NCBI GenBank assembly: GCA_965203475.1
Contig: OZ241890.1
Span: 1,513,423 to 1,577,422, forward strand
Direction of reading: 5' to 3'
From: Gammaproteobacteria bacterium
GTDB taxonomy: Bacteria > Pseudomonadota > Gammaproteobacteria > UBA4575
DNA: 64,000 nucleotides
Shown here piece after piece: positions 729 to 52,555 of this stretch. Under the pieces are notes generated by a model, which was given only the letters and a program-made list of their open reading frames with translations, made no database searches and was not told the DNA's origin. The position numbers and the translations under genes were made by a program. The stretch's first letter is position 1. Each line of letters opens with the position of its first letter.

Positions 729-1088
729 CTAATTGCATGAAAATTCCCGGAATAAACCATTTTTAACAATATCCGGCGCGGAACGATCTAATTTCGCATC
801 TTCTCGTAAAATAAATTTGGAAACTGCTTCAATGATTTGATTCTTTGTAGTTCCTTCTTCAATACAAAGACTTACTGTCCCACTAGATTCTTGGTCAAAA
901 ATTGCACCAATATAGCCAGCATATTCTGCAATTAAGGTTGTATCTGCTCCTTCTGCCTCACTTTGATAATGTTGCCATTCCTTAGCAGCCTGCACTAACT
1001 TCTCACTATTAAAAAAATGATACGTCACTGCATCAGCACTTGTAAGAACAAGGATGAGCAGAACTGAGCTTGTTATTTTTTTAATCAT
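729..1088 (-). CDS. Small secreted hypothetical protein (119 aa, signal peptide)
   Basis: ORF with a hydrophobic N-terminus; no recognisable domain. Confidence 0.4.
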   Translation of the reverse strand: MIKKITSSVLLILVLTSADAVTYHFFNSEKLVQAAKEWQHYQSEAEGADTTLIAEYAGYIGAIFDQESSGTVSLCIEEGTTKNQIIEAVSKFILREDAKLDRSAPDIVKNGLFREFSCN

Positions 1089-1151
1089 AACTCTAATATA
1101 CTGAATATAATGTAATAATATTTGACTATTGTAAATAATTTATAAAACTCA

Positions 1152-1904
1152 ATGGAAGTAAACTTTAAAAATAAATTTGGAAAAACATTATCCGGAATCA
1201 TAGATGAAGTAGACGATCCAATCACTACGGCTGTTTTTTCACATTGTTTTACCTGCTCAAAAGATCACACAGCCAGTTATCGAATTTGCAAAGCATTGGC
1301 AAACAATGGTATTCAGGTACTCCGCTTTGATTTTACTGGTTTGGGCAAAAGCGAAGGCGATTTTTCAGAAACAGACTTTTCCTACAATATTGATGATATA
1401 ACTTCTGCCATCAATTTTTTGCAGGAAAATTTTAGCGCCCCTAAACTGTTAATAGGCCATAGCTTAGGCGGAATAGCTGCTGTGGCCACGGCATGTCAAC
1501 TTAAAAACATCGATGCTGTAGCGACCATTGCTTCCCCCAGCCGCCCTGTACATGTCCTAGATCACTTTGAACACCACATTCCAAAAATACTAAAAGAAGG
1601 CTCAGACAATATTATGATTTTTGATCGTACCTTCACACTAACAAAAACCTATATTGAGGATTTAAAAAGTTACGATGAGCAAAATTTTATTCGTAGATTA
1701 AATAAACCAATTTTAATTTTTCATTCGCCGTTAGATGATATTGTGTCCATCGATGAAGCGGCAAAAATTTTTATAGAAGCAAAGCATCCAAAGAGTTTTA
1801 TTTCACTTGATGAGTCCCACCATTTAATTACTCATAAGAGGGATGCCAATTATATAGCGGAACATATTGCAAGCTGGGCGAAGCGCTATATACAGCCAAA
1901 TTAA
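1152..1904 (+). CDS. Alpha/beta-fold serine hydrolase
   Basis: GHSLGG nucleophile-elbow motif; 250 aa. Confidence 0.7.
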   Translation: MEVNFKNKFGKTLSGIIDEVDDPITTAVFSHCFTCSKDHTASYRICKALANNGIQVLRFDFTGLGKSEGDFSETDFSYNIDDITSAINFLQENFSAPKLLIGHSLGGIAAVATACQLKNIDAVATIASPSRPVHVLDHFEHHIPKILKEGSDNIMIFDRTFTLTKTYIEDLKSYDEQNFIRRLNKPILIFHSPLDDIVSIDEAAKIFIEAKHPKSFISLDESHHLITHKRDANYIAEHIASWAKRYIQPN

Positions 1905-5305: not shown

Positions 5306-5476
5306 TCGTCAAGCTGGCAGGAATAATGTGTAGAAAAAAACCGACCAAGTACCTGCAGATGGCATGCATTTTTGCCACTTACAAGCAAAATCTTTGAATT
5401 AAACTTGAGAATATATATGAGAGAGAATTATTAGAAATTTGATTTAGGAGTTTATGTTTGTTCATTAAAAATTCAT

Positions 5477-6253
5477 CTACCACGGATACATTGATAACCA
5501 AATCCCTCCCCAAATAATCAAAGCTAATCCAGAAATAAACCTTGTCCACTTTACTGGCAGTGGTGATAACTTTTCAAACAATACAAATAGAGTGATTAAA
5601 ATTACCCACAACATGTTCATCACGCCCACAGAAAAAAGAATCGCCATTAACGCCCAGCAACAACCAACGCAAAATAGTCCATGCTTAAATCCCATGTTAA
5701 ATGCACCCCAGTAACCATCTTTCCATGAAGCCAACACAAATCCTAAAGGCGTTCTGCAATTATTCAGACAGACATCTTTAAGTGGCGTCCACTGATATAA
5801 ACCCGCAATTACAAGTATTCCTCCACTTAGTAAATAACTACGACTGTTCATCATTGGATTAAGTAAGCCTGATTCGTGTAAAGGCCATTGGATAAAACTA
5901 ATCACCACACTAAATACAACCCATGCAAATAAATAACCAAGTAGAAAAATATAGGTGGGGACAAATAATTGTTGGTTTAATTTCTTTTGTTTATTTACCG
6001 TTGCAAACATTGTCACCATAGGGGTAACGGTTGGCGTCATCATGGCAATCATCATCACCATCCACATAATGACCAGCATTATAAAATCGTAAGCGGTCCA
6101 TGCCCTGGCTCCTCCGCGCGGCGGCATCCACATTTCTACTATATGCATATTTTCCATTGCCCAGGCCATATAAAACATATAGGCCCACCCCACCGATGAC
6201 ACCAGAGCTAAGCCGAGAAAAATCAATAGTTTGTCGTTCGATCTTAGTTCCAT
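5477..6253 (-). CDS. DUF2182-like predicted metal-binding integral membrane protein (His/Met-rich)
   Basis: Multiple transmembrane segments; the Met/His-rich stretch MWMVMMIAMMTPTVTPMVTM. It is paired divergently with a DUF1326-like gene. Confidence 0.55.
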   Translation of the reverse strand: MELRSNDKLLIFLGLALVSSVGWAYMFYMAWAMENMHIVEMWMPPRGGARAWTAYDFIMLVIMWMVMMIAMMTPTVTPMVTMFATVNKQKKLNQQLFVPTYIFLLGYLFAWVVFSVVISFIQWPLHESGLLNPMMNSRSYLLSGGILVIAGLYQWTPLKDVCLNNCRTPLGFVLASWKDGYWGAFNMGFKHGLFCVGCCWALMAILFSVGVMNMLWVILITLFVLFEKLSPLPVKWTRFISGLALIIWGGIWLSMYPW

Positions 6254-6325
6254 CTAAAACTTATATTCCAATTTTGTTCCGGTTATAATATTCGTCAAAT
6301 TCAAAAACAACAAACAGGTAGGATT

Positions 6326-6934
6326 ATGGCAATAACCAATTGGAAAGTAGAAGGCAATTATTTTGAATCCTGTAACTGTGAGAATCTTTGCCCATGCATT
6401 TTATTAAAAGACCCTACTGAAGGATTTTGTGAAGCAATGGTTGGGTGGGAAATTGAGAAAGGACACTGTGAAGATGTTTCATTGGATGGAGTAAAGGTTG
6501 GCGTTTGGTTACATGCACCAGGTAATTTAACAGCAGGTGACTGGAAACTTGCACTCTATGTTGATGAATCGGCTAGTGAAGAACAGTTTAATGCTATTGC
6601 ATCACTCTGGAGTGGAGAAGGTGGTGGTCATTTGGCGGTAATCGCAAGTCTTGTTGGTGAAGTCATGGGTGCCGAAAAAGCCAAGATCTCATTTGAATAT
6701 ACGGATACCAAAAAACATTTAATCATCGATGGATTGGGTGAAAATGAAATGGTTCCTGTAGAAGGGCAAGAAGGAAGAAATGTAATTATTTCGGATCCTC
6801 CCTTAGCGGTTGCCCCAGGTAACGACATTACTATGCACGAATCCAAAAATGCGCATTATGAAGGCCATGGATACACCTGGAAACAATCTGGAAAAGCAGG
6901 CTTAGCCTCGCCTTTCCAATACGGACCCGAATAA
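6326..6934 (+). CDS. DUF1326-like Cys-rich protein
   Basis: N-terminal CNCENLCPC cysteine cluster; divergent partner of the DUF2182-like gene. Confidence 0.55.
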   Translation: MAITNWKVEGNYFESCNCENLCPCILLKDPTEGFCEAMVGWEIEKGHCEDVSLDGVKVGVWLHAPGNLTAGDWKLALYVDESASEEQFNAIASLWSGEGGGHLAVIASLVGEVMGAEKAKISFEYTDTKKHLIIDGLGENEMVPVEGQEGRNVIISDPPLAVAPGNDITMHESKNAHYEGHGYTWKQSGKAGLASPFQYGPE

Positions 6935-6958
6935 TACTCTAATTAAATTTACTATTCT

Positions 6959-6992
6959 AAAAGAGCCCTGCTAATTGTAGGGCTCTTTTAAT
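6959..6992 (+). terminator. Rho-independent terminator
   Basis: AAGAGCCCTG-ctaattg-TAGGGCTCTTTT hairpin followed by a T-run. Confidence 0.7.
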
Positions 6993-7001
6993 TTATTTAT
7001 C

Positions 7002-7120
7002 TGAAAAATTTTTAAAATTTAAAAGTACTTAAATTTCACTGAATGACTTCGTCATACTTAATTTACGGGCAGTACCCGCCCGCAAGTGTGGTGGCTATGG
7101 TTGGACTTGAACCAACGACC
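7002..7120. repeat. Direct repeat copy 1 (119 bp) containing the 3' 32 nt of tRNA-Met plus 86 bp of its downstream flank; putative attR-like end
   Basis: Identical, apart from one A in a homopolymer, to 9018..9135. It ends inside the tRNA T-arm/acceptor sequence ggttggacttgaaccaacgacc. Confidence 0.85.
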
Positions 7121-7224
7121 CTAGCATATAGTCAGCTCATCGCGTAGGAGATTTTCCGTATCAAGATTAGAGCCTATATTAATTAATCAGATAAAACCTT
7201 CTATTTTCAGTTGGGGACAAATTC

Positions 7225-8976
7225 TTGAACGATACCAGCCAAGCAATCGAGCATAAAAATATTCATCTGCTTAATGATGATGAAACTCCTTTTGATTTTG
7301 TAATTGAATTACTTAGATCTATATTTTCAAAATCACAAAATGAAGCAGAAAAAATAGCCAAGGCAACAGATAGAACAGGTAAAGGCTTATGCGGCACATA
7401 CCCATCTGAAGTTGCAGATGTGTTGTTAACACGTGCACGACAATATATTACAGATCAAAGCCAACCTCTTAAACTTGCATCTGAAAATGTTGTAAAAAAT
7501 ACTGCTGTTTTGAAATGCGGTTTCTGTGGGAAATTTAAGGATCAAGTTAAACATTTAATAAGTGGAAAGGATACTTATATATGTGATGCATGTGTTCTCA
7601 CAAGCACTGAATTACTCCGAGAAAACCTAGCGGAAAAGAGATTTACATATGCATACGAGATGCTTAACTGGCATTTTGGAAATATCGCTGAAGAACAAAT
7701 AATCACCTCAAGTCGTTTTTTTCCTGCAAGAGTAAGAGTGGATTTACAACTCTCTATTGACTCGTTGCTAAGTGATGGCGTAATTAAATTTATTGGCATT
7801 CATAATGATAGAGAATATGAACAGCTTACTATGGCTACCCTACTTAAGAAAGGCCGACAACCAAAAATGATTGGCCCCATTCAAAGAGAAGATGTAGATA
7901 TTGGTGAGGATACTCCAGTTAAATGTTTAGCTAATGGACTTTGGATACTCAAAGAATCCGATGTTCCTTACGCTGTCTTAGTTACAAAGAACACTGATTA
8001 CACACATCAGAAATCAGGTATCACAATAGAAGCTGCAGCGCCAGCAGGTGAAGAGGCATCTAAAATCACAGAAAAATTTTTCAAAACTTTAGAAAAAGCT
8101 GTTAATACCTCCAAATCATATAGAGGCAAAGTTCTATCTCTAGATATGGCAAGTATGTATTCAGGCATGTCGAACGGTATAACAGTTCACAAGCTCTCTC
8201 CTGTTTCCCAAGATGATGTCATTCTGCCAAAGACCACAAGAGATGCACTAGATCGAAATGTAATAAACTTTGCAAAACAAAGATCTGAATTAGTTTCTCG
8301 TGGACAATCAACAAAAAAAGGATTGCTATTTTATGGACCACCAGGAACAGGTAAAACTCATACAATTAAATATCTAGCTTCAAATTTATCAGATCACACA
8401 ACACTATTAGTAACAGCAGAACAAGTTGGAATACTTGATGAATACTTCTCACTAGCCCGACTACTGCAACCATCTATTTTAGTTATTGAAGATGTAGATC
8501 TAATAGCAAAAGCCAGAGAGACAATAAACAGTCCGTGCGAAGAAGCATTACTAAATAAACTTCTGAATGAGATGGATGGTTTAAAAGAAGATGCAGAAGT
8601 ATTTTTTGTACTAACTACTAATCGTCCTGATACATTAGAAGATGCATTAGCATCTAGGCCTGGAAGGATAGATCAAGCCATTGAATTTCCTTTGCCCGAT
8701 GAAGCCGGCAGAGAAAAGCTTGTTAACCTATATAGTGCAGGCCTTAATCTAGATGAAAAACTGGTGAAAGTAGTCGTGAATAGAACTGAAAATGTAAGTG
8801 GTGCATTTATAAAAGAATTAATGAGGCGATCAACGCAATATAGTCTTGATCGTGGTGATGGTGATTCAGTCATTATTGAAGATATTGAAAGTGCGTTAGA
8901 AGAAATGCTCTTCTCTGGAGGAGTACTTAACACAAAACTTTTAGGTGGAGAAAACAAACAAGATCAAACTCATTGA
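7225..8976 (+). CDS. ClpS-like N-domain + ClpX-type C4 zinc ribbon + classic-clade AAA+ ATPase fusion protein
   Basis: The N-terminus LLNDDETPFDFVIELLRSIF...GKGLCGTY...EVADVLLTRARQY aligns with ClpS. CGFCGKFKDQVKHLISGKDTYICDAC resembles the ClpX zinc-binding domain (C-x2-C-x19-C-x2-C). Walker A GPPGTGKTH, Walker B ILVIEDVDL and SRH ...SRPGRIDQ are present. The start codon is TTG. Confidence 0.85.
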   Translation: MNDTSQAIEHKNIHLLNDDETPFDFVIELLRSIFSKSQNEAEKIAKATDRTGKGLCGTYPSEVADVLLTRARQYITDQSQPLKLASENVVKNTAVLKCGFCGKFKDQVKHLISGKDTYICDACVLTSTELLRENLAEKRFTYAYEMLNWHFGNIAEEQIITSSRFFPARVRVDLQLSIDSLLSDGVIKFIGIHNDREYEQLTMATLLKKGRQPKMIGPIQREDVDIGEDTPVKCLANGLWILKESDVPYAVLVTKNTDYTHQKSGITIEAAAPAGEEASKITEKFFKTLEKAVNTSKSYRGKVLSLDMASMYSGMSNGITVHKLSPVSQDDVILPKTTRDALDRNVINFAKQRSELVSRGQSTKKGLLFYGPPGTGKTHTIKYLASNLSDHTTLLVTAEQVGILDEYFSLARLLQPSILVIEDVDLIAKARETINSPCEEALLNKLLNEMDGLKEDAEVFFVLTTNRPDTLEDALASRPGRIDQAIEFPLPDEAGREKLVNLYSAGLNLDEKLVKVVVNRTENVSGAFIKELMRRSTQYSLDRGDGDSVIIEDIESALEEMLFSGGVLNTKLLGGENKQDQTH

Positions 8977-9017
8977 TGGACTTTTGCCTGACTTGTAGTG
9001 CTCCGTTGTGCTTTGTT

Positions 9018-9135
9018 TGAAAATTTTTAAAATTTAAAAGTACTTAAATTTCACTGAATGACTTCGTCATACTTAATTTACGGGCAGTACCCGCCCGCAA
9101 GTGTGGTGGCTATGGTTGGACTTGAACCAACGACC
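9018..9135. repeat. Direct repeat copy 2, overlapping the 3' part of the intact tRNA-Met and its downstream flank (attL-like)
   Basis: See copy 1. Confidence 0.85.
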
Positions 9136-9180
9136 CCAGCATTATGAATGCTGTGCTCTAACCAACTGAGCTACATAGCC
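9104..9180 (-). tRNA. tRNA-Met (anticodon CAT), elongator-like; a lysidine tRNA-Ile2 cannot be fully excluded
   Basis: Reverse complement GGCTATGTAGCTCAGTTGGTTAGAGCACAGCATTCATAATGCTGGGGTCGTTGGTTCAAGTCCAACCATAGCCACCA. This is a full cloverleaf with an encoded CCA and is close to E. coli metT. Confidence 0.9.
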
Positions 9181-9421
9181 ACTATTTCCTTGGACCGCGG
9201 ACGATACGATACTGGTCTAAACGCTGTCAACAAACCTTAATCTTATATTCTAAAAACGTCAGCGAGGCAGCCAAGACAAGGCAAAAATTTCAGAATAAGC
9301 GGAGTTTACATATAAGTAAATGAGCATTATGAAAGAATTTTTAACGCAGTACTGGCAACACAGCTAGTTTTTAGACATTAAACCTAAAATGTACGACGTA
9401 TATCCTTGTACCTCTAGCCTC

Positions 9422-10513
9422 TTATACATTAAACCTAAAATGCACAACGTCTCCTTCTCGCATTACGTAATCTTTGCCCTCTAAACGCCACTTCCCTTGG
9501 TCTTTGGCCCCGGCTTCACCACTGGCTTCAACATAGTCTTGGTAAGCTACAACTTCAGCACGGATAAAGCCTTTTTCAAAATCGGTATGAATTTTTCCAG
9601 CGGCTTGTGGCGCGGTAGAACCAGAGCGCACTGTCCACGCACGTGCTTCTTTAGGGCCTGCCGTAAAAAATGTTTGTAAACCTAATAATTCATACCCTGC
9701 ACGAATTACTCGATTTAATCCTGGCTCGTTCAAACCTAACTCAGCTAAATATTCTTGTTGTTCTTCCTTATTTAATTGCGCAAGTTCAGCTTCTATCTTT
9801 GCACACACTGGTACCACTTGAATAGATTTAGACTTGGCTAATTCTTCGAGTTGTTGTAAATGAGGATTGTTTTCAAATCCATCTTCAGCAACATTTGCGA
9901 TATAAAACGCTGGCTTGTGTGTAATTAAATGTAATTCTTTAATTAGATACTCTTGTTCTTTATCAATCACAAAACTATGGGCTAACTGTTCTTCTTCTAA
10001 ATGTTTTTTTAATGCCTGAAATATTTCTAATTGTGCTAGAGATTCTTTGTTACCAGATTTTGCGACACGTTCTACACGACTAATCGCTTTCTCAATCGTT
10101 TCTAAATCTGCAAGTATTAATTCAGTGGTGATAGTTTCTAAATCGGAAAGGGGATCAATTTTTCCATCTACATGAATAATATTTTCATCATCAAAACATC
10201 TCACCACATGGGCAATCGCATCTGTTTCACGAATATGGCCTAAAAACTGGTTGCCCAAGCCTTCACCCTTAGAAGCTCCTGCAACTAATCCAGCAATGTC
10301 TACAAATTCAATAGTGGTAGGAATTACTTCTTTGGATTGAGCAATTTTTGCCAAGGAGTCTAATCGTTCATCAGGCACAGGAACAATGCCTACATTAGGA
10401 TCGATGGTACAAAACGGATAATTTTCGGCTGCAATTTCCGTGGCAGTTAATGCATTAAATAATGTTGATTTGCCTACATTAGGCAAACCCACGATGCCAC
10501 ATGTAAACCCCAT
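9422..10513 (-). CDS. ychF: Ribosome-binding ATPase YchF
   Basis: [16 protein letters not shown]-loop and TGS C-terminus; conserved synteny with pth. Confidence 0.92.
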
Positions 10514-11122: not shown

Positions 11123-11821
11123 TTAAGAGTCGTCTCCTTCTGACTTCTCTTCACTATCTTCTTGGGATTCTTTATCTTCAGTCGTTTCTTCTTCTGCTGC
11201 TTCGTCTTCTTCACTTACAACAGGTTCTTCCTCTTCAACGGCACGTTTCACATGCACTGAAACTACAACATGGTCATGGCCTTCACCATGTGCAAGTTCT
11301 ACAATAGTCACCCCTTCTGGAACTTTAACTTCACTTAAATGAATAGTTTCGTTTAGTTTGAGATCTGCAACATCGACTTCGATAAACTCAGGAAGGTCTT
11401 TGGGCAAACAGATAATTTCAAGTTCAACAAAGTTGTGACTGATTACACCACCTTCCATTTTTACACCGTGACAAATATCTTCATTAATAAAATGCAAAGG
11501 TACATGTACATTAATGGCAGTATCTTCACGAACACGTAATAAATCTACATGTAGCACAGTAGGCCTGTAAGGATGACGCTGTAAATCACGCAAAATTGTT
11601 TTTTGTTTTTTCTTGCCAACATTTACTGTCAAAATGTGAGAATAAAAAGCTTCTTGCTCAAGGTTGTGCATAAAGGAGTCATGATCTAATGTTACCGAGA
11701 CAGGGTCTTCTCCCCCGCCATAAATCACAGCAGGAATTTTTCCTGATTTACGCAGTCGTCGGCTCGCACCTTTCCCAAGATCACTTCTTGGTTCTGCATC
11801 AAATGTAAAATCGAGACTCAT
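11123..11821 (-). CDS. rplY: 50S ribosomal protein L25 / general stress protein Ctc, with acidic C-terminal tail
   Basis: L25/Ctc fold sequence, acidic tail, position between pth and prs. Confidence 0.85.
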
Positions 11822-11856
11822 TTTCTACTCCAGCTTCAATCTCAAAACGAGATTAA

Positions 11857-12831
11857 TTAATCCATATATAGTGTACTGACAGATTCTTCTTGATTGATCC
11901 GTCGCATCGATTCTGCGATGAGACCTGATACTTCCAACTGGCGTATCCGAGTACATGCCTTGGCATCATCGCGGAGCGGAATTGTATCAGTTACTACCAA
12001 TTCATCCAGCGTAGAGTTATTAAGATTTTCAATGGCCTTACCAGAAAGGACTGGATGGGTGGCATAGGCCCGCACACTGGAGGCTCCATGTTTTTTCAGC
12101 GCCGAGGCTGCCTGACACAGAGTGCCAGCTGTATCGACCAAATCATCAATGATATAGCAAGATTTTCCCTTTACCTCACCAATGATATGCATCACTTCAG
12201 CCTTATTCGCTTCAGGGCGTCTTTTATCAATGATGGCCAAATCAGCATCATCCAGACGTTTTGCTAAAGCTCGAGCCCGCACCACGCCTCCGACATCAGG
12301 AGACACCACAATAAGATTCGGGTCTTTGCGTTTATACACATCTCCTAATAACACGGGCGAGGCATACACATTATCCACCGGTATATCAAAAAACCCCTGA
12401 ATTTGATCTGCATGCAAATCTACCGTTAGCACACGATCAGCACCAACACTGCTAATCAGATTAGCCACTACCTTGGCTGATATTGGAACTCGAATGGAGC
12501 GCACACGGCGGTCTTGTCGTGAATATCCAAAATATGGAATAACAGTGGTAATCCGCTCCGCCGAGGAACGTTTCAGCGCATCGACAATTATTAGTAACTC
12601 CATGATATTTTCGTTGGTCGGCATACACGTAGGTTGCACAACGAATACATCTTTACCCCGGACGTTTTCTTGAATTTCTACCTGCACCTCTCCATCACTA
12701 AATCGACTCATTAGAGCCTTACCCAATGGAATATTCAAATAGTCGACAATATCTTGGGCAAGCTTCGGATGTGCGTTTCCAGAAAACACCATCATGTTGC
12801 TGTCGGGAGGTAATGTCCTTTGACGAATCAT
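11857..12831 (-). CDS. prs: Ribose-phosphate pyrophosphokinase
   Basis: PRPP synthetase motifs. The true start is probably the internal [14 protein letters not shown] (~12795). Confidence 0.9.
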
Positions 12832-50503: not shown

Positions 50504-52405
<1,902 letters not shown>

Positions 52406-52435: not shown

Positions 52436-52555
52436 ACATTAGAATATCTGCAGCTTCCCTACGCCAGCATGACCTGGATCAGGTACTTAGAGTAATTCTC
52501 AGCCCATGCAACAAACTAACTGTTTCTCGTTGGGCTCCCCTAGCCTCAGTGATGC
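52436..52555 (-). promoter_or_regulatory. TPP (THI-box) riboswitch in the thiC leader
   Basis: The minus strand carries ctaggggagccc...gggCTGAGAattactctaagtACCTGATCCAGGTCATGCTGGCGTAGGGAAg, matching the conserved THI-element core. Confidence 0.8.

Follow-up and report, generated by a model that had tools for sequence, protein, structure and literature searches.

An integrase-less, single-gene insertion relic between long direct repeats at the ychF-linked tRNA-Met of a gammaproteobacterium

Integrase-less remnants bounded by tRNA fragments, and cis-mobilisable elements (CIMEs), are already known. CIMEs are decay products of streptococcal integrative and conjugative or integrative and mobilisable elements (ICEs and IMEs), bounded by att sites and mobilised in trans (PMC5704250). 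Integrase-mediated integration leaves an intact tRNA gene (tDNA) and a same-orientation 3' fragment downstream, which is the principle of Islander (PMC4383910), and the tycheposon islands of Prochlorococcus comprise elements separated by partial tRNAs, with integrase-less remnants among them (bioRxiv 10.1101/2020.12.28.424599). Here, we analysed a stretch of 64,000 nucleotides from a gammaproteobacterium of the UBA4575 lineage (GCA_965203475.1, contig OZ241890.1, positions 1,513,423 to 1,577,422; hereafter the window), in which a 2-kb islet holding one gene lies at a tRNA-Met gene, between near-identical direct repeats. The islet is a real and fairly ordinary insertion relic at a known hot spot, and not a new kind of mobile element. 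Its unusual traits are a repeat of 119-125 bp that includes a native terminator, and native DNA on the side of the tRNA.

Like a CIME, the islet has attL/attR-like direct repeats, recognised from a pair of near-identical copies, each containing the target's 3' end, and lacks integration and transfer genes, as judged from the Pfam analysis of its sole gene and a tblastn search with an integrase. The likeness would extend to the dependence of CIMEs on a cognate integrase in trans for any movement, and to their frequent occurrence in tandem accretions. Unlike a CIME, it has a gammaproteobacterial tRNA-Met as its target, a single gene, and the long, terminator-containing repeat; the arm beside the regenerated target is native, no parental ICE, IME or integrase is known, and the islet itself is known from sequence only. 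With the tRNA islands of P4-type integrases (PMC4383910), such as GI-pheV of Escherichia coli (PMC11537424), it shares the intact tDNA and same-orientation 3' fragment, and its site is that of an island in a related genome (L170, below). In contrast to these islands, it has no integrase, measures 2 kb rather than ~10-110 kb, has a repeat of 119-125 bp rather than 19-23 bp, and has native DNA next to the tRNA.

Cargo modules split by a partial island tRNA, integrase-less remnants and conserved tRNA positions are features in common with the tycheposon islands; the islet differs in its lineage and in having one partial tRNA, and no tycheposon-type recombinase or replication module was seen. As in integron cassettes, one gene is paired with one recombination site and the recombinase would be encoded elsewhere, but the islet has no imperfect palindrome of the attC type, integron platform or IntI, and the site is a tRNA 3' end plus terminator. 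In aberrant excision of the lambda gal/bio type, as in the history proposed below, chromosomal DNA adjacent to an att site is captured, the element's own functions are lost, and re-insertion takes place through shared homology or the att site. The islet differs from that type in that no phage or element DNA is left in it, and its mechanism is one that we infer.

The repeat copies span 7002-7127 and 9018-9142 and show two differences, an extra A in a homopolymer and a substitution at the edge. By pairwise alignment, they were identical from T7002/T9018 to C7121/C9136, save for A5 (7004-7008) versus A4 (9020-9023); the single mismatch (7122 T versus 9137 C) was followed by five matching bases (7123-7127 and 9138-9142). 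A repeat finder returned 7005-7127 and 9020-9142 (123 nt, 99% identity, spacing 2015). Each copy contains the last 33-39 nt of tRNA-Met(CAT) and an 86-nt, hairpin-rich trailer, predicted to fold into three hairpins (-23.6 kcal/mol, z = -3.5), and the tRNA was the only part of the unit that Rfam matched. Probes of 33 and 49 nt from the unit matched two sites only in the window at <=3 mismatches (0 expected from 100 shuffles), and a sensitive search of the window for a degenerate third copy was negative. The repeat finder identified no inverted repeats at the islet ends, and with a duplication of 119-125 bp the islet does not qualify as a transposon or a miniature inverted-repeat transposable element. 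An extension of the repeat past its distal end (TTGTAG[G/T]GCTC) was rejected as not significant (p ~0.06).

A sequence-only reading of the window had reported near-identical repeats at 7002..7120 and 9018..9135 with a one-A difference, and this description held, the block continuing to 7127 and 9142 after one substitution. It had also counted 86 bp of downstream tRNA flank within the repeat, in agreement with our finding that this flank is homologous to the trailers of two related loci (L173 and L169). ARAGORN, Rfam and direct reading bore out its placing of the intact tRNA at the right copy and of a 3' fragment at the left. The length that it gave for this fragment (32 nt) was corrected to 33 nt of perfect match, or 39 nt with one mismatch.

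The first base of the fragment corresponds to the last base of the anticodon loop and the encoded CCA is included; a tRNA cannot form from it. It lies 2 kb downstream of the intact tRNA in the same (-) orientation, the arrangement of tDNA and 3' fragment by which Islander recognises islands. Dozens of gammaproteobacterial loci preserve the gene order tRNA-Gln-prs-rplY-pth-ychF-tRNA-Met and, because this ychF-linked order is conserved across many Gammaproteobacteria, the tRNA-Met stands in its ancestral place. The coordinates of the features are collected in Table 1.

Table 1. Features of the islet and of other parts of the window, with positions counted from the first letter of the window.
Feature	Position	Strand	Basis and remarks
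PpoB2 (copper chaperone)	5477-6253	-	Pfam
DUF1326	6326-6934	+	Pfam
DUF1326 terminator hairpin	6958-6990		sequence scan
Left (distal) trailer copy, one extra A	7002-7088	-	followed by the DUF1326 terminator, not by the native 41 bp
Displaced 3' tRNA-Met fragment, non-functional	7089-7127	-	raw tRNA positions 39-77; 45-77 perfect, mismatch at 44
Cargo upstream region, 97 bp	7128-7224	+	no consensus promoter found (scan); no similarity to relatives' loci
Cargo gene, 583 aa, intact	7225-8976	+	TTG start, GGGGA 7 nt upstream; sole long ORF between the copies
41-bp spacer, cargo stop codon to right repeat copy	8977-9017	.	~90% identical to L173 9393-9433
Right (tRNA-proximal) trailer copy, 86 nt	9018-9103	-	three hairpins, the first with a 10-bp G+C-rich stem
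Intact tRNA-Met(CAT), encoded CCA	9104-9180	-	ARAGORN; Rfam RF00005, 75 bits; just downstream of ychF
Promoter-like site TTGACA-18-TATCGT	9230-9201	-	consensus scan, 10/12 matches, consensus match only; upstream of tRNA-Met
Thiamine pyrophosphate (TPP) riboswitch	52439-52551	-	upstream of thiC (50504-52396), as expected

The interior between the copies (7128-9017) holds one long open reading frame (ORF), hereafter the cargo gene, which encodes a protein with ClpS, zinc-finger and AAA+ domains; the noncoding DNA amounts to 97 bp before the gene and 41 bp after it. Islander expects an integrase inside a candidate island, and the sole ORF here is this ClpS-zinc-finger-AAA gene. The single gene is not a phage gene and is accompanied by no integrase, replication or packaging-interference genes, which sets the islet apart from phage satellites and phage-inducible chromosomal islands. 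The search for a recombinase covered the 64-kb window, out of ~2.41 Mb. Pfam analysis of ~50 ORFs across the window identified no integrase, transposase or excisionase, and tblastn with the P4-type integrase of L170 gave no match there. The ORFs scanned were housekeeping and accessory genes (ychF, pth, rplY, prs, ispE, lolB, hemA, prfA, prmC, gatBA, mreBCD, thiC and others). The repeat unit, the tRNA fragment and the 41-bp segment were all absent from viral contigs, and a search of plasmids returned matches to the tRNA and ychF only. Both the single gene and the lack of integrase, excisionase and replication genes in the islet had been noted in the earlier reading; Pfam and tblastn analysis support it on each count.

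The closest relatives were uncultured organisms represented in ENA long-read metagenome assemblies (YchF 83-86% identical, ~74% nucleotide identity), and six of their loci were read; in a YchF scan of genome contigs, the matches listed were all <=68% identical. The tRNA-side repeat copy together with the 41-bp spacer aligned with L173 9267-9433, and L169 shares the trailer (p <= 0.003). The L173 counterpart of the spacer (9393-9433) directly follows the L173 trailer, and the homology ends ~4 nt inside the cargo stop-codon region. A 23-mer from the spacer was present only here and in L173, and the tRNA-Met of the window is identical to the L173 tRNA (77/77). Of the hairpin pairs compared across the window, L173 and L169, 5/14 are altered at both bases yet still pair, a pattern expected when a terminator or processing structure is conserved. 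These alignments indicate that the right copy and the 41 bp are lineage-native DNA, contiguous up to the cargo gene. The extra repeat copy is the distal one (7002-7127); the DNA that follows it, the DUF1326 terminator, shows at best a weak, non-significant match to the 41-bp segment.

As the trailer and the 41 bp on the tRNA side are native, a foreign element with its own attP does not fit, and the inserted unit must derive from the tRNA-Met locus of the same lineage. Islander takes the DNA beside the regenerated tDNA to be element-borne; here that DNA is homologous to L173 and L169. The attL/attR signature of integration into a tRNA 3' end, claimed in the sequence-only reading, therefore stands as a layout, while the picture of a plain attL/attR pair brought by an incoming element is too simple, given the native 41 bp beside the right copy. 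We also noted that the distal trailer plus the 41-bp segment (TTAAAAATTTTCAAACAAAGCACAAC..AGCACTACA.GTCAGGCAAAAGT) is ~90% identical between the window (8977-9040) and L173 (9380-9433), whereas identity falls to ~70-75% in the trailer's hairpin part and in the neighbouring genes.

The ychF-linked tRNA-Met is an insertion hot spot in this gammaproteobacterial clade. In all six relatives, synteny extends up to the tRNA-Met and is lost at its 3' end or shortly beyond it, exactly at the CCA in 4/6, with different DNA following in each: DUF5677, Rrf2 and cox genes in L081; RHS and AbiE in L082; NDH2 and a two-component system in L169; a porin, P-II and DUF1538 in L174; and ~0.6 kb of noncoding DNA in L173. 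In L170, a P4-type tyrosine integrase (Arm-DNA-bind_3, Phage_int_M, Phage_integrase) lies 163 bp after the same tRNA-Met. The cargo gene was absent from these six loci, where other DNA occupies the site, and tblastn (E < 1) identified neither the gene nor a remnant of it in any of the eight relatives' loci. The backbone genes ORF163, response regulator/histidine kinase, hydrolase and Rap1a-like are common to the window, L169 and L174; since this outer backbone is shared, the variable segment can be set at ~5306-8976, comprising the DUF1326-PpoB2 pair, the extra repeat copy and the cargo gene.

Several further observations were made at these loci. Ahead of the L170 integrase (region 11371-12726) stand a strong terminator hairpin and three TGGGGGCAA(C/T) repeats; fragments of rve-type transposases follow it. 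Within the backbone, the Rap1a-like (type VI immunity) protein adjoins the alpha/beta hydrolase (window 729-1904), and the pair is syntenic in L169 (17649-19150). An unrelated gammaproteobacterial metagenome-assembled genome (MAG) has three tandem 118-bp units with no cargo directly after its ychF-linked tRNA-Met (L047, 11207-11591); each unit joins 93 nt, which hold a tRNA-Met-like anticodon-arm relic, to the final 25 nt of the tRNA. In a Woeseiaceae MAG (L031, 14251-19303), two complete tandem tRNA-Met genes stand 142 bp apart, with four 30-nt 3' fragments over 5 kb downstream, a pattern that suggests serial integrations at the same tRNA.

We propose that the islet is a defective, integrase-less, CIME-like unit of 2,015 bp, which arose by the Campbell-type insertion of a locus-derived conspecific circle of ~2 kb, probably with an integrase acting in trans; we place the probability of this account at roughly 0.5. 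The circle would have carried the cargo gene with the lineage's own tRNA-Met 3' end, trailer and 41-bp flank, and its donor would have been a conspecific genome with the cargo gene directly beyond the native flank. In a recipient that had DUF1326-PpoB2 at this place, a single crossover with the homologous tRNA 3' end and trailer would have inserted the circle and duplicated the block of 119-125 bp. A tRNA-targeting tyrosine integrase in trans probably produced the circle or inserted it; aberrant excision or recombination of an att with a pseudo-att site could have been the route. Such an integrase is suggested by the start of the duplicated block, which falls within the 3' half of the tRNA, and by the P4-type integrase found at the same tRNA in L170. 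The unit is today without a recombinase, and the two routes by which it could leave are such an integrase and RecA-mediated recombination between the identical 119-bp repeats; an empty site would show the CCA and trailer joined directly to CAGATAAATAAATTAAAAGAGCCC. From the 119-bp perfect repeats, an unstable and strain-variable locus is predicted. Both alternatives of the sequence-only reading, a trans-mobilised element and an event internal to the locus, survive.

Several points weigh against this account. RecA alone could have carried out the insertion, and both the circle and its donor are reconstructed. The identity block of 119-125 bp is ~5x the 19-23 bp of P4-type islands (PMC11537424) and is longer than the 25-30-nt blocks of L047 and L031. 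As the anticodon-loop bases of the fragment mismatch those of the tRNA, the crossover cannot be assigned to a class. No displaced tRNA-Met fragment was identified within 7-10 kb in any of the six relatives (6/6), so integrase scars are not the rule at this locus. A cognate integrase is not known for this genome, the window being the extent of the search. In the collections searched, no empty site, excised circle or second strain was found, and any mobility is putative. Exact-protein look-ups (the cargo, an identical entry and DUF1326) led to no contig, and the proteins tested were singletons at 90% identity (4/4).

The main rival dispenses with a site-specific recombinase altogether, and we regard it as possible, if unlikely. 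Here, two population alleles, tRNA-trailer-41bp-AAA and tRNA-trailer-DUF1326-PpoB2, would have been joined in tandem. Either RecA would have inserted a circularised fragment through a single crossover, or transforming DNA with its anchor in the shared backbone would have undergone homology-facilitated illegitimate recombination; the boundary inside the tRNA would be the mere end of a DNA fragment, a coincidence. The native tRNA-side arm and 41 bp agree with such a history, as do the absence of an integrase from the islet and the window and the lack of tRNA-fragment scars in the relatives; 119-125 bp of perfect homology would be ample for RecA, and the conserved backbone genes around the variable segment could serve as anchors. 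The position of the breakpoint tells against it: a break within the 39-nt 3' half of the tRNA, in the right orientation, is expected for integrases and only a few percent likely for a random end. In addition, the sole substitution lies 5 nt from the block edge, more like imperfect att-type homology than a random later mutation (~5%), and the homology-free circularisation of a linear fragment is rare.

A classical foreign island, with its own attP made up of a tRNA-like 3' end and its own trailer, might instead have decayed in place to one cargo gene. We consider this improbable. The tDNA-plus-fragment signature and the orphan cargo gene of low GC content at third codon positions (GC3) would suit such an origin, and extreme decay at this tRNA is seen elsewhere, in the 93-nt 'islands' between the 25-nt fragments of L047 and in the serial fragments of L031. 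However, the trailer and 41 bp are shared with L173 and L169 at about genome-wide divergence and with compensatory changes, and are hence native; no pseudogene remnants accompany the 97 and 41 bp of noncoding DNA, tblastn for an integrase was empty, and the 86-bp identity beyond the tRNA would be left unexplained.

Before turning to the idea of a cassette array, we describe the PpoB2-DUF1326 module, which has the left repeat copy on one side and the conserved backbone on the other and is variable hot-spot DNA with a GC content of 40-42%, above that of its neighbours. In the contigs of the closest DUF1326 homologues (88% and 79% identity; L167 and L168), the pair is located elsewhere, not near tRNA-Met, and the intergenic DNA cannot be aligned. 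The pair behaves as a movable two-gene module, because the genomic contexts differ in these contigs.

More speculatively, the tRNA-Met 3' end and its 86-nt structured trailer could form a portable landing pad for integrase-free cassettes (AAA; DUF1326-PpoB2) in an integron-like array, an idea that we hold to be decidedly unlikely. Modules would then circulate in the population and accumulate behind the tRNA, with either homologous recombination or a recombinase encoded elsewhere doing the stacking; tandem units of the same design, without cargo, are present in L047. In its strict form, as a tRNA-anchored array of small integrase-free cassettes that a trans-acting recombinase stacks as in an integron, each module starting with the tRNA 3' end and 86-nt arm, it is quite improbable. 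The unit does separate two small modules, DUF1326-PpoB2 occurs in differing contexts in relatives, three tandem units of trailer and tRNA 3' end, none with cargo, follow the same tRNA in L047, and both copies show a weak match (GAGCNCTACAA) past the end of the block. Against these points, there are two unit copies only, and no third att copy, even a degenerate one, was found when the far end of DUF1326-PpoB2 was searched; the match beyond the block is not significant (p ~0.06), no unit flanks DUF1326-PpoB2 in L167 or L168, and no recombinase was identified. An assembly artefact, with two metagenome strain alleles stitched in tandem, is very improbable: the relatives are long-read metagenome assemblies, the source contig may be one too, and the homopolymer A difference could be a read error, but long reads span a 123-bp repeat 2 kb apart trivially, a tandem path needs a real junction at 7127/7128 (cargo upstream region to mid-tRNA) that an allele bubble would not make, and the copies differ by a substitution.

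The cargo protein contains ClpS (residues 13-84), a ClpX C4 zinc finger (97-133) and AAA (367-490), all above the curated Pfam cut-offs. Between the zinc finger and the AAA domain lies an alpha/beta domain (~140-340), and the AAA+ ATPase (367-490 plus lid) is of the classical clade. The N-terminus is assigned to ClpS by both fold and domain profile. The catalytic and zinc-binding residues align in invariant columns across 27 family members, and for this reason the protein looks functional. It probably acts as an unfoldase in its own right, using the ClpS domain to recognise protein N-termini. The sequence-only reading had proposed a comparison of islet and flank composition; measured against the window, the gene has a GC content of 36.1% (window as a whole, 38.5%; window mean, 38.7%) and a GC3 of 0.208 (window mean 0.302, sd 0.049). 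No other long gene has so low a GC3, and the composition appears mildly atypical in the AT-rich direction.

An identical protein is known from one 2.41-Mb contig only; the nearest non-identical homologue anywhere has 57% identity, and full-length homologues occur in high-GC soil metagenomes and in alpha- and beta-proteobacteria. The N-terminal 340 aa matched 59 cluster representatives (E <= 1e-30), and the module of middle domain and AAA is also found behind other N-terminal regions, in proteins of 440-840 aa. The nearest solved structure covering the middle domain and AAA is that of Bacillus subtilis YjoB. No conserved neighbour was found in 29 homologue loci. Across 80 metagenome loci and the contig of the closest homologue, neighbours were likewise not conserved and tRNA adjacency was seen in one locus only (L088; tRNA-Glu, no repeat), and because almost no tRNA association exists the family is not generally cargo of tRNA islets. 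No close homologue was present in viral collections, and no NCBIfam family was matched at its cut-off. Identity with the anti-phage ATPase IetA/IteA was considered and rejected: the NCBIfam IteA score was 74 bits against a cut-off of 510, the PADLOC match to IetA covers the AAA region only, the partner protease gene is absent, and the similarity is that of a generic AAA.

The spacer between ychF and tRNA-Met showed two further features. The last eight ychF codons and stop (VVHFRFNV*) recur ~51 bp downstream of the gene at 90% identity (9371-9399 and 9422-9450). Extra copies of this ychF end were seen in L082 (one) and L169 (two), each set apart by similar spacers of ~24 nt, and not in L081 and L170; they might represent either a tandem unit that varies in copy number or att-site relics located at the 3' end of ychF. 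A stretch of ~120 nt (~9240-9365, -) is strongly conserved with L169 and partly with L170, has no Rfam match, and may be an unannotated small RNA or leader.

ClpS, ClpX zinc finger, middle domain and AAA+ make up a widespread family, mainly of soil bacteria, for which no described function was found. Its architecture joins an N-degron reader (ClpS) to an AAA+ unfoldase of the Cdc48/FtsH type and may merit study as a family; the protein family is the more original by-product of the islet analysis. As to the islet, if the proposed insertion of a locus-derived circle is correct, the long repeat would have arisen because the inserted unit came from the tRNA flank of the same lineage, and such units would escape island finders that demand an integrase or set a minimum size. 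A tRNA hot spot could then gain a single accessory gene without leaving a recombinase behind.

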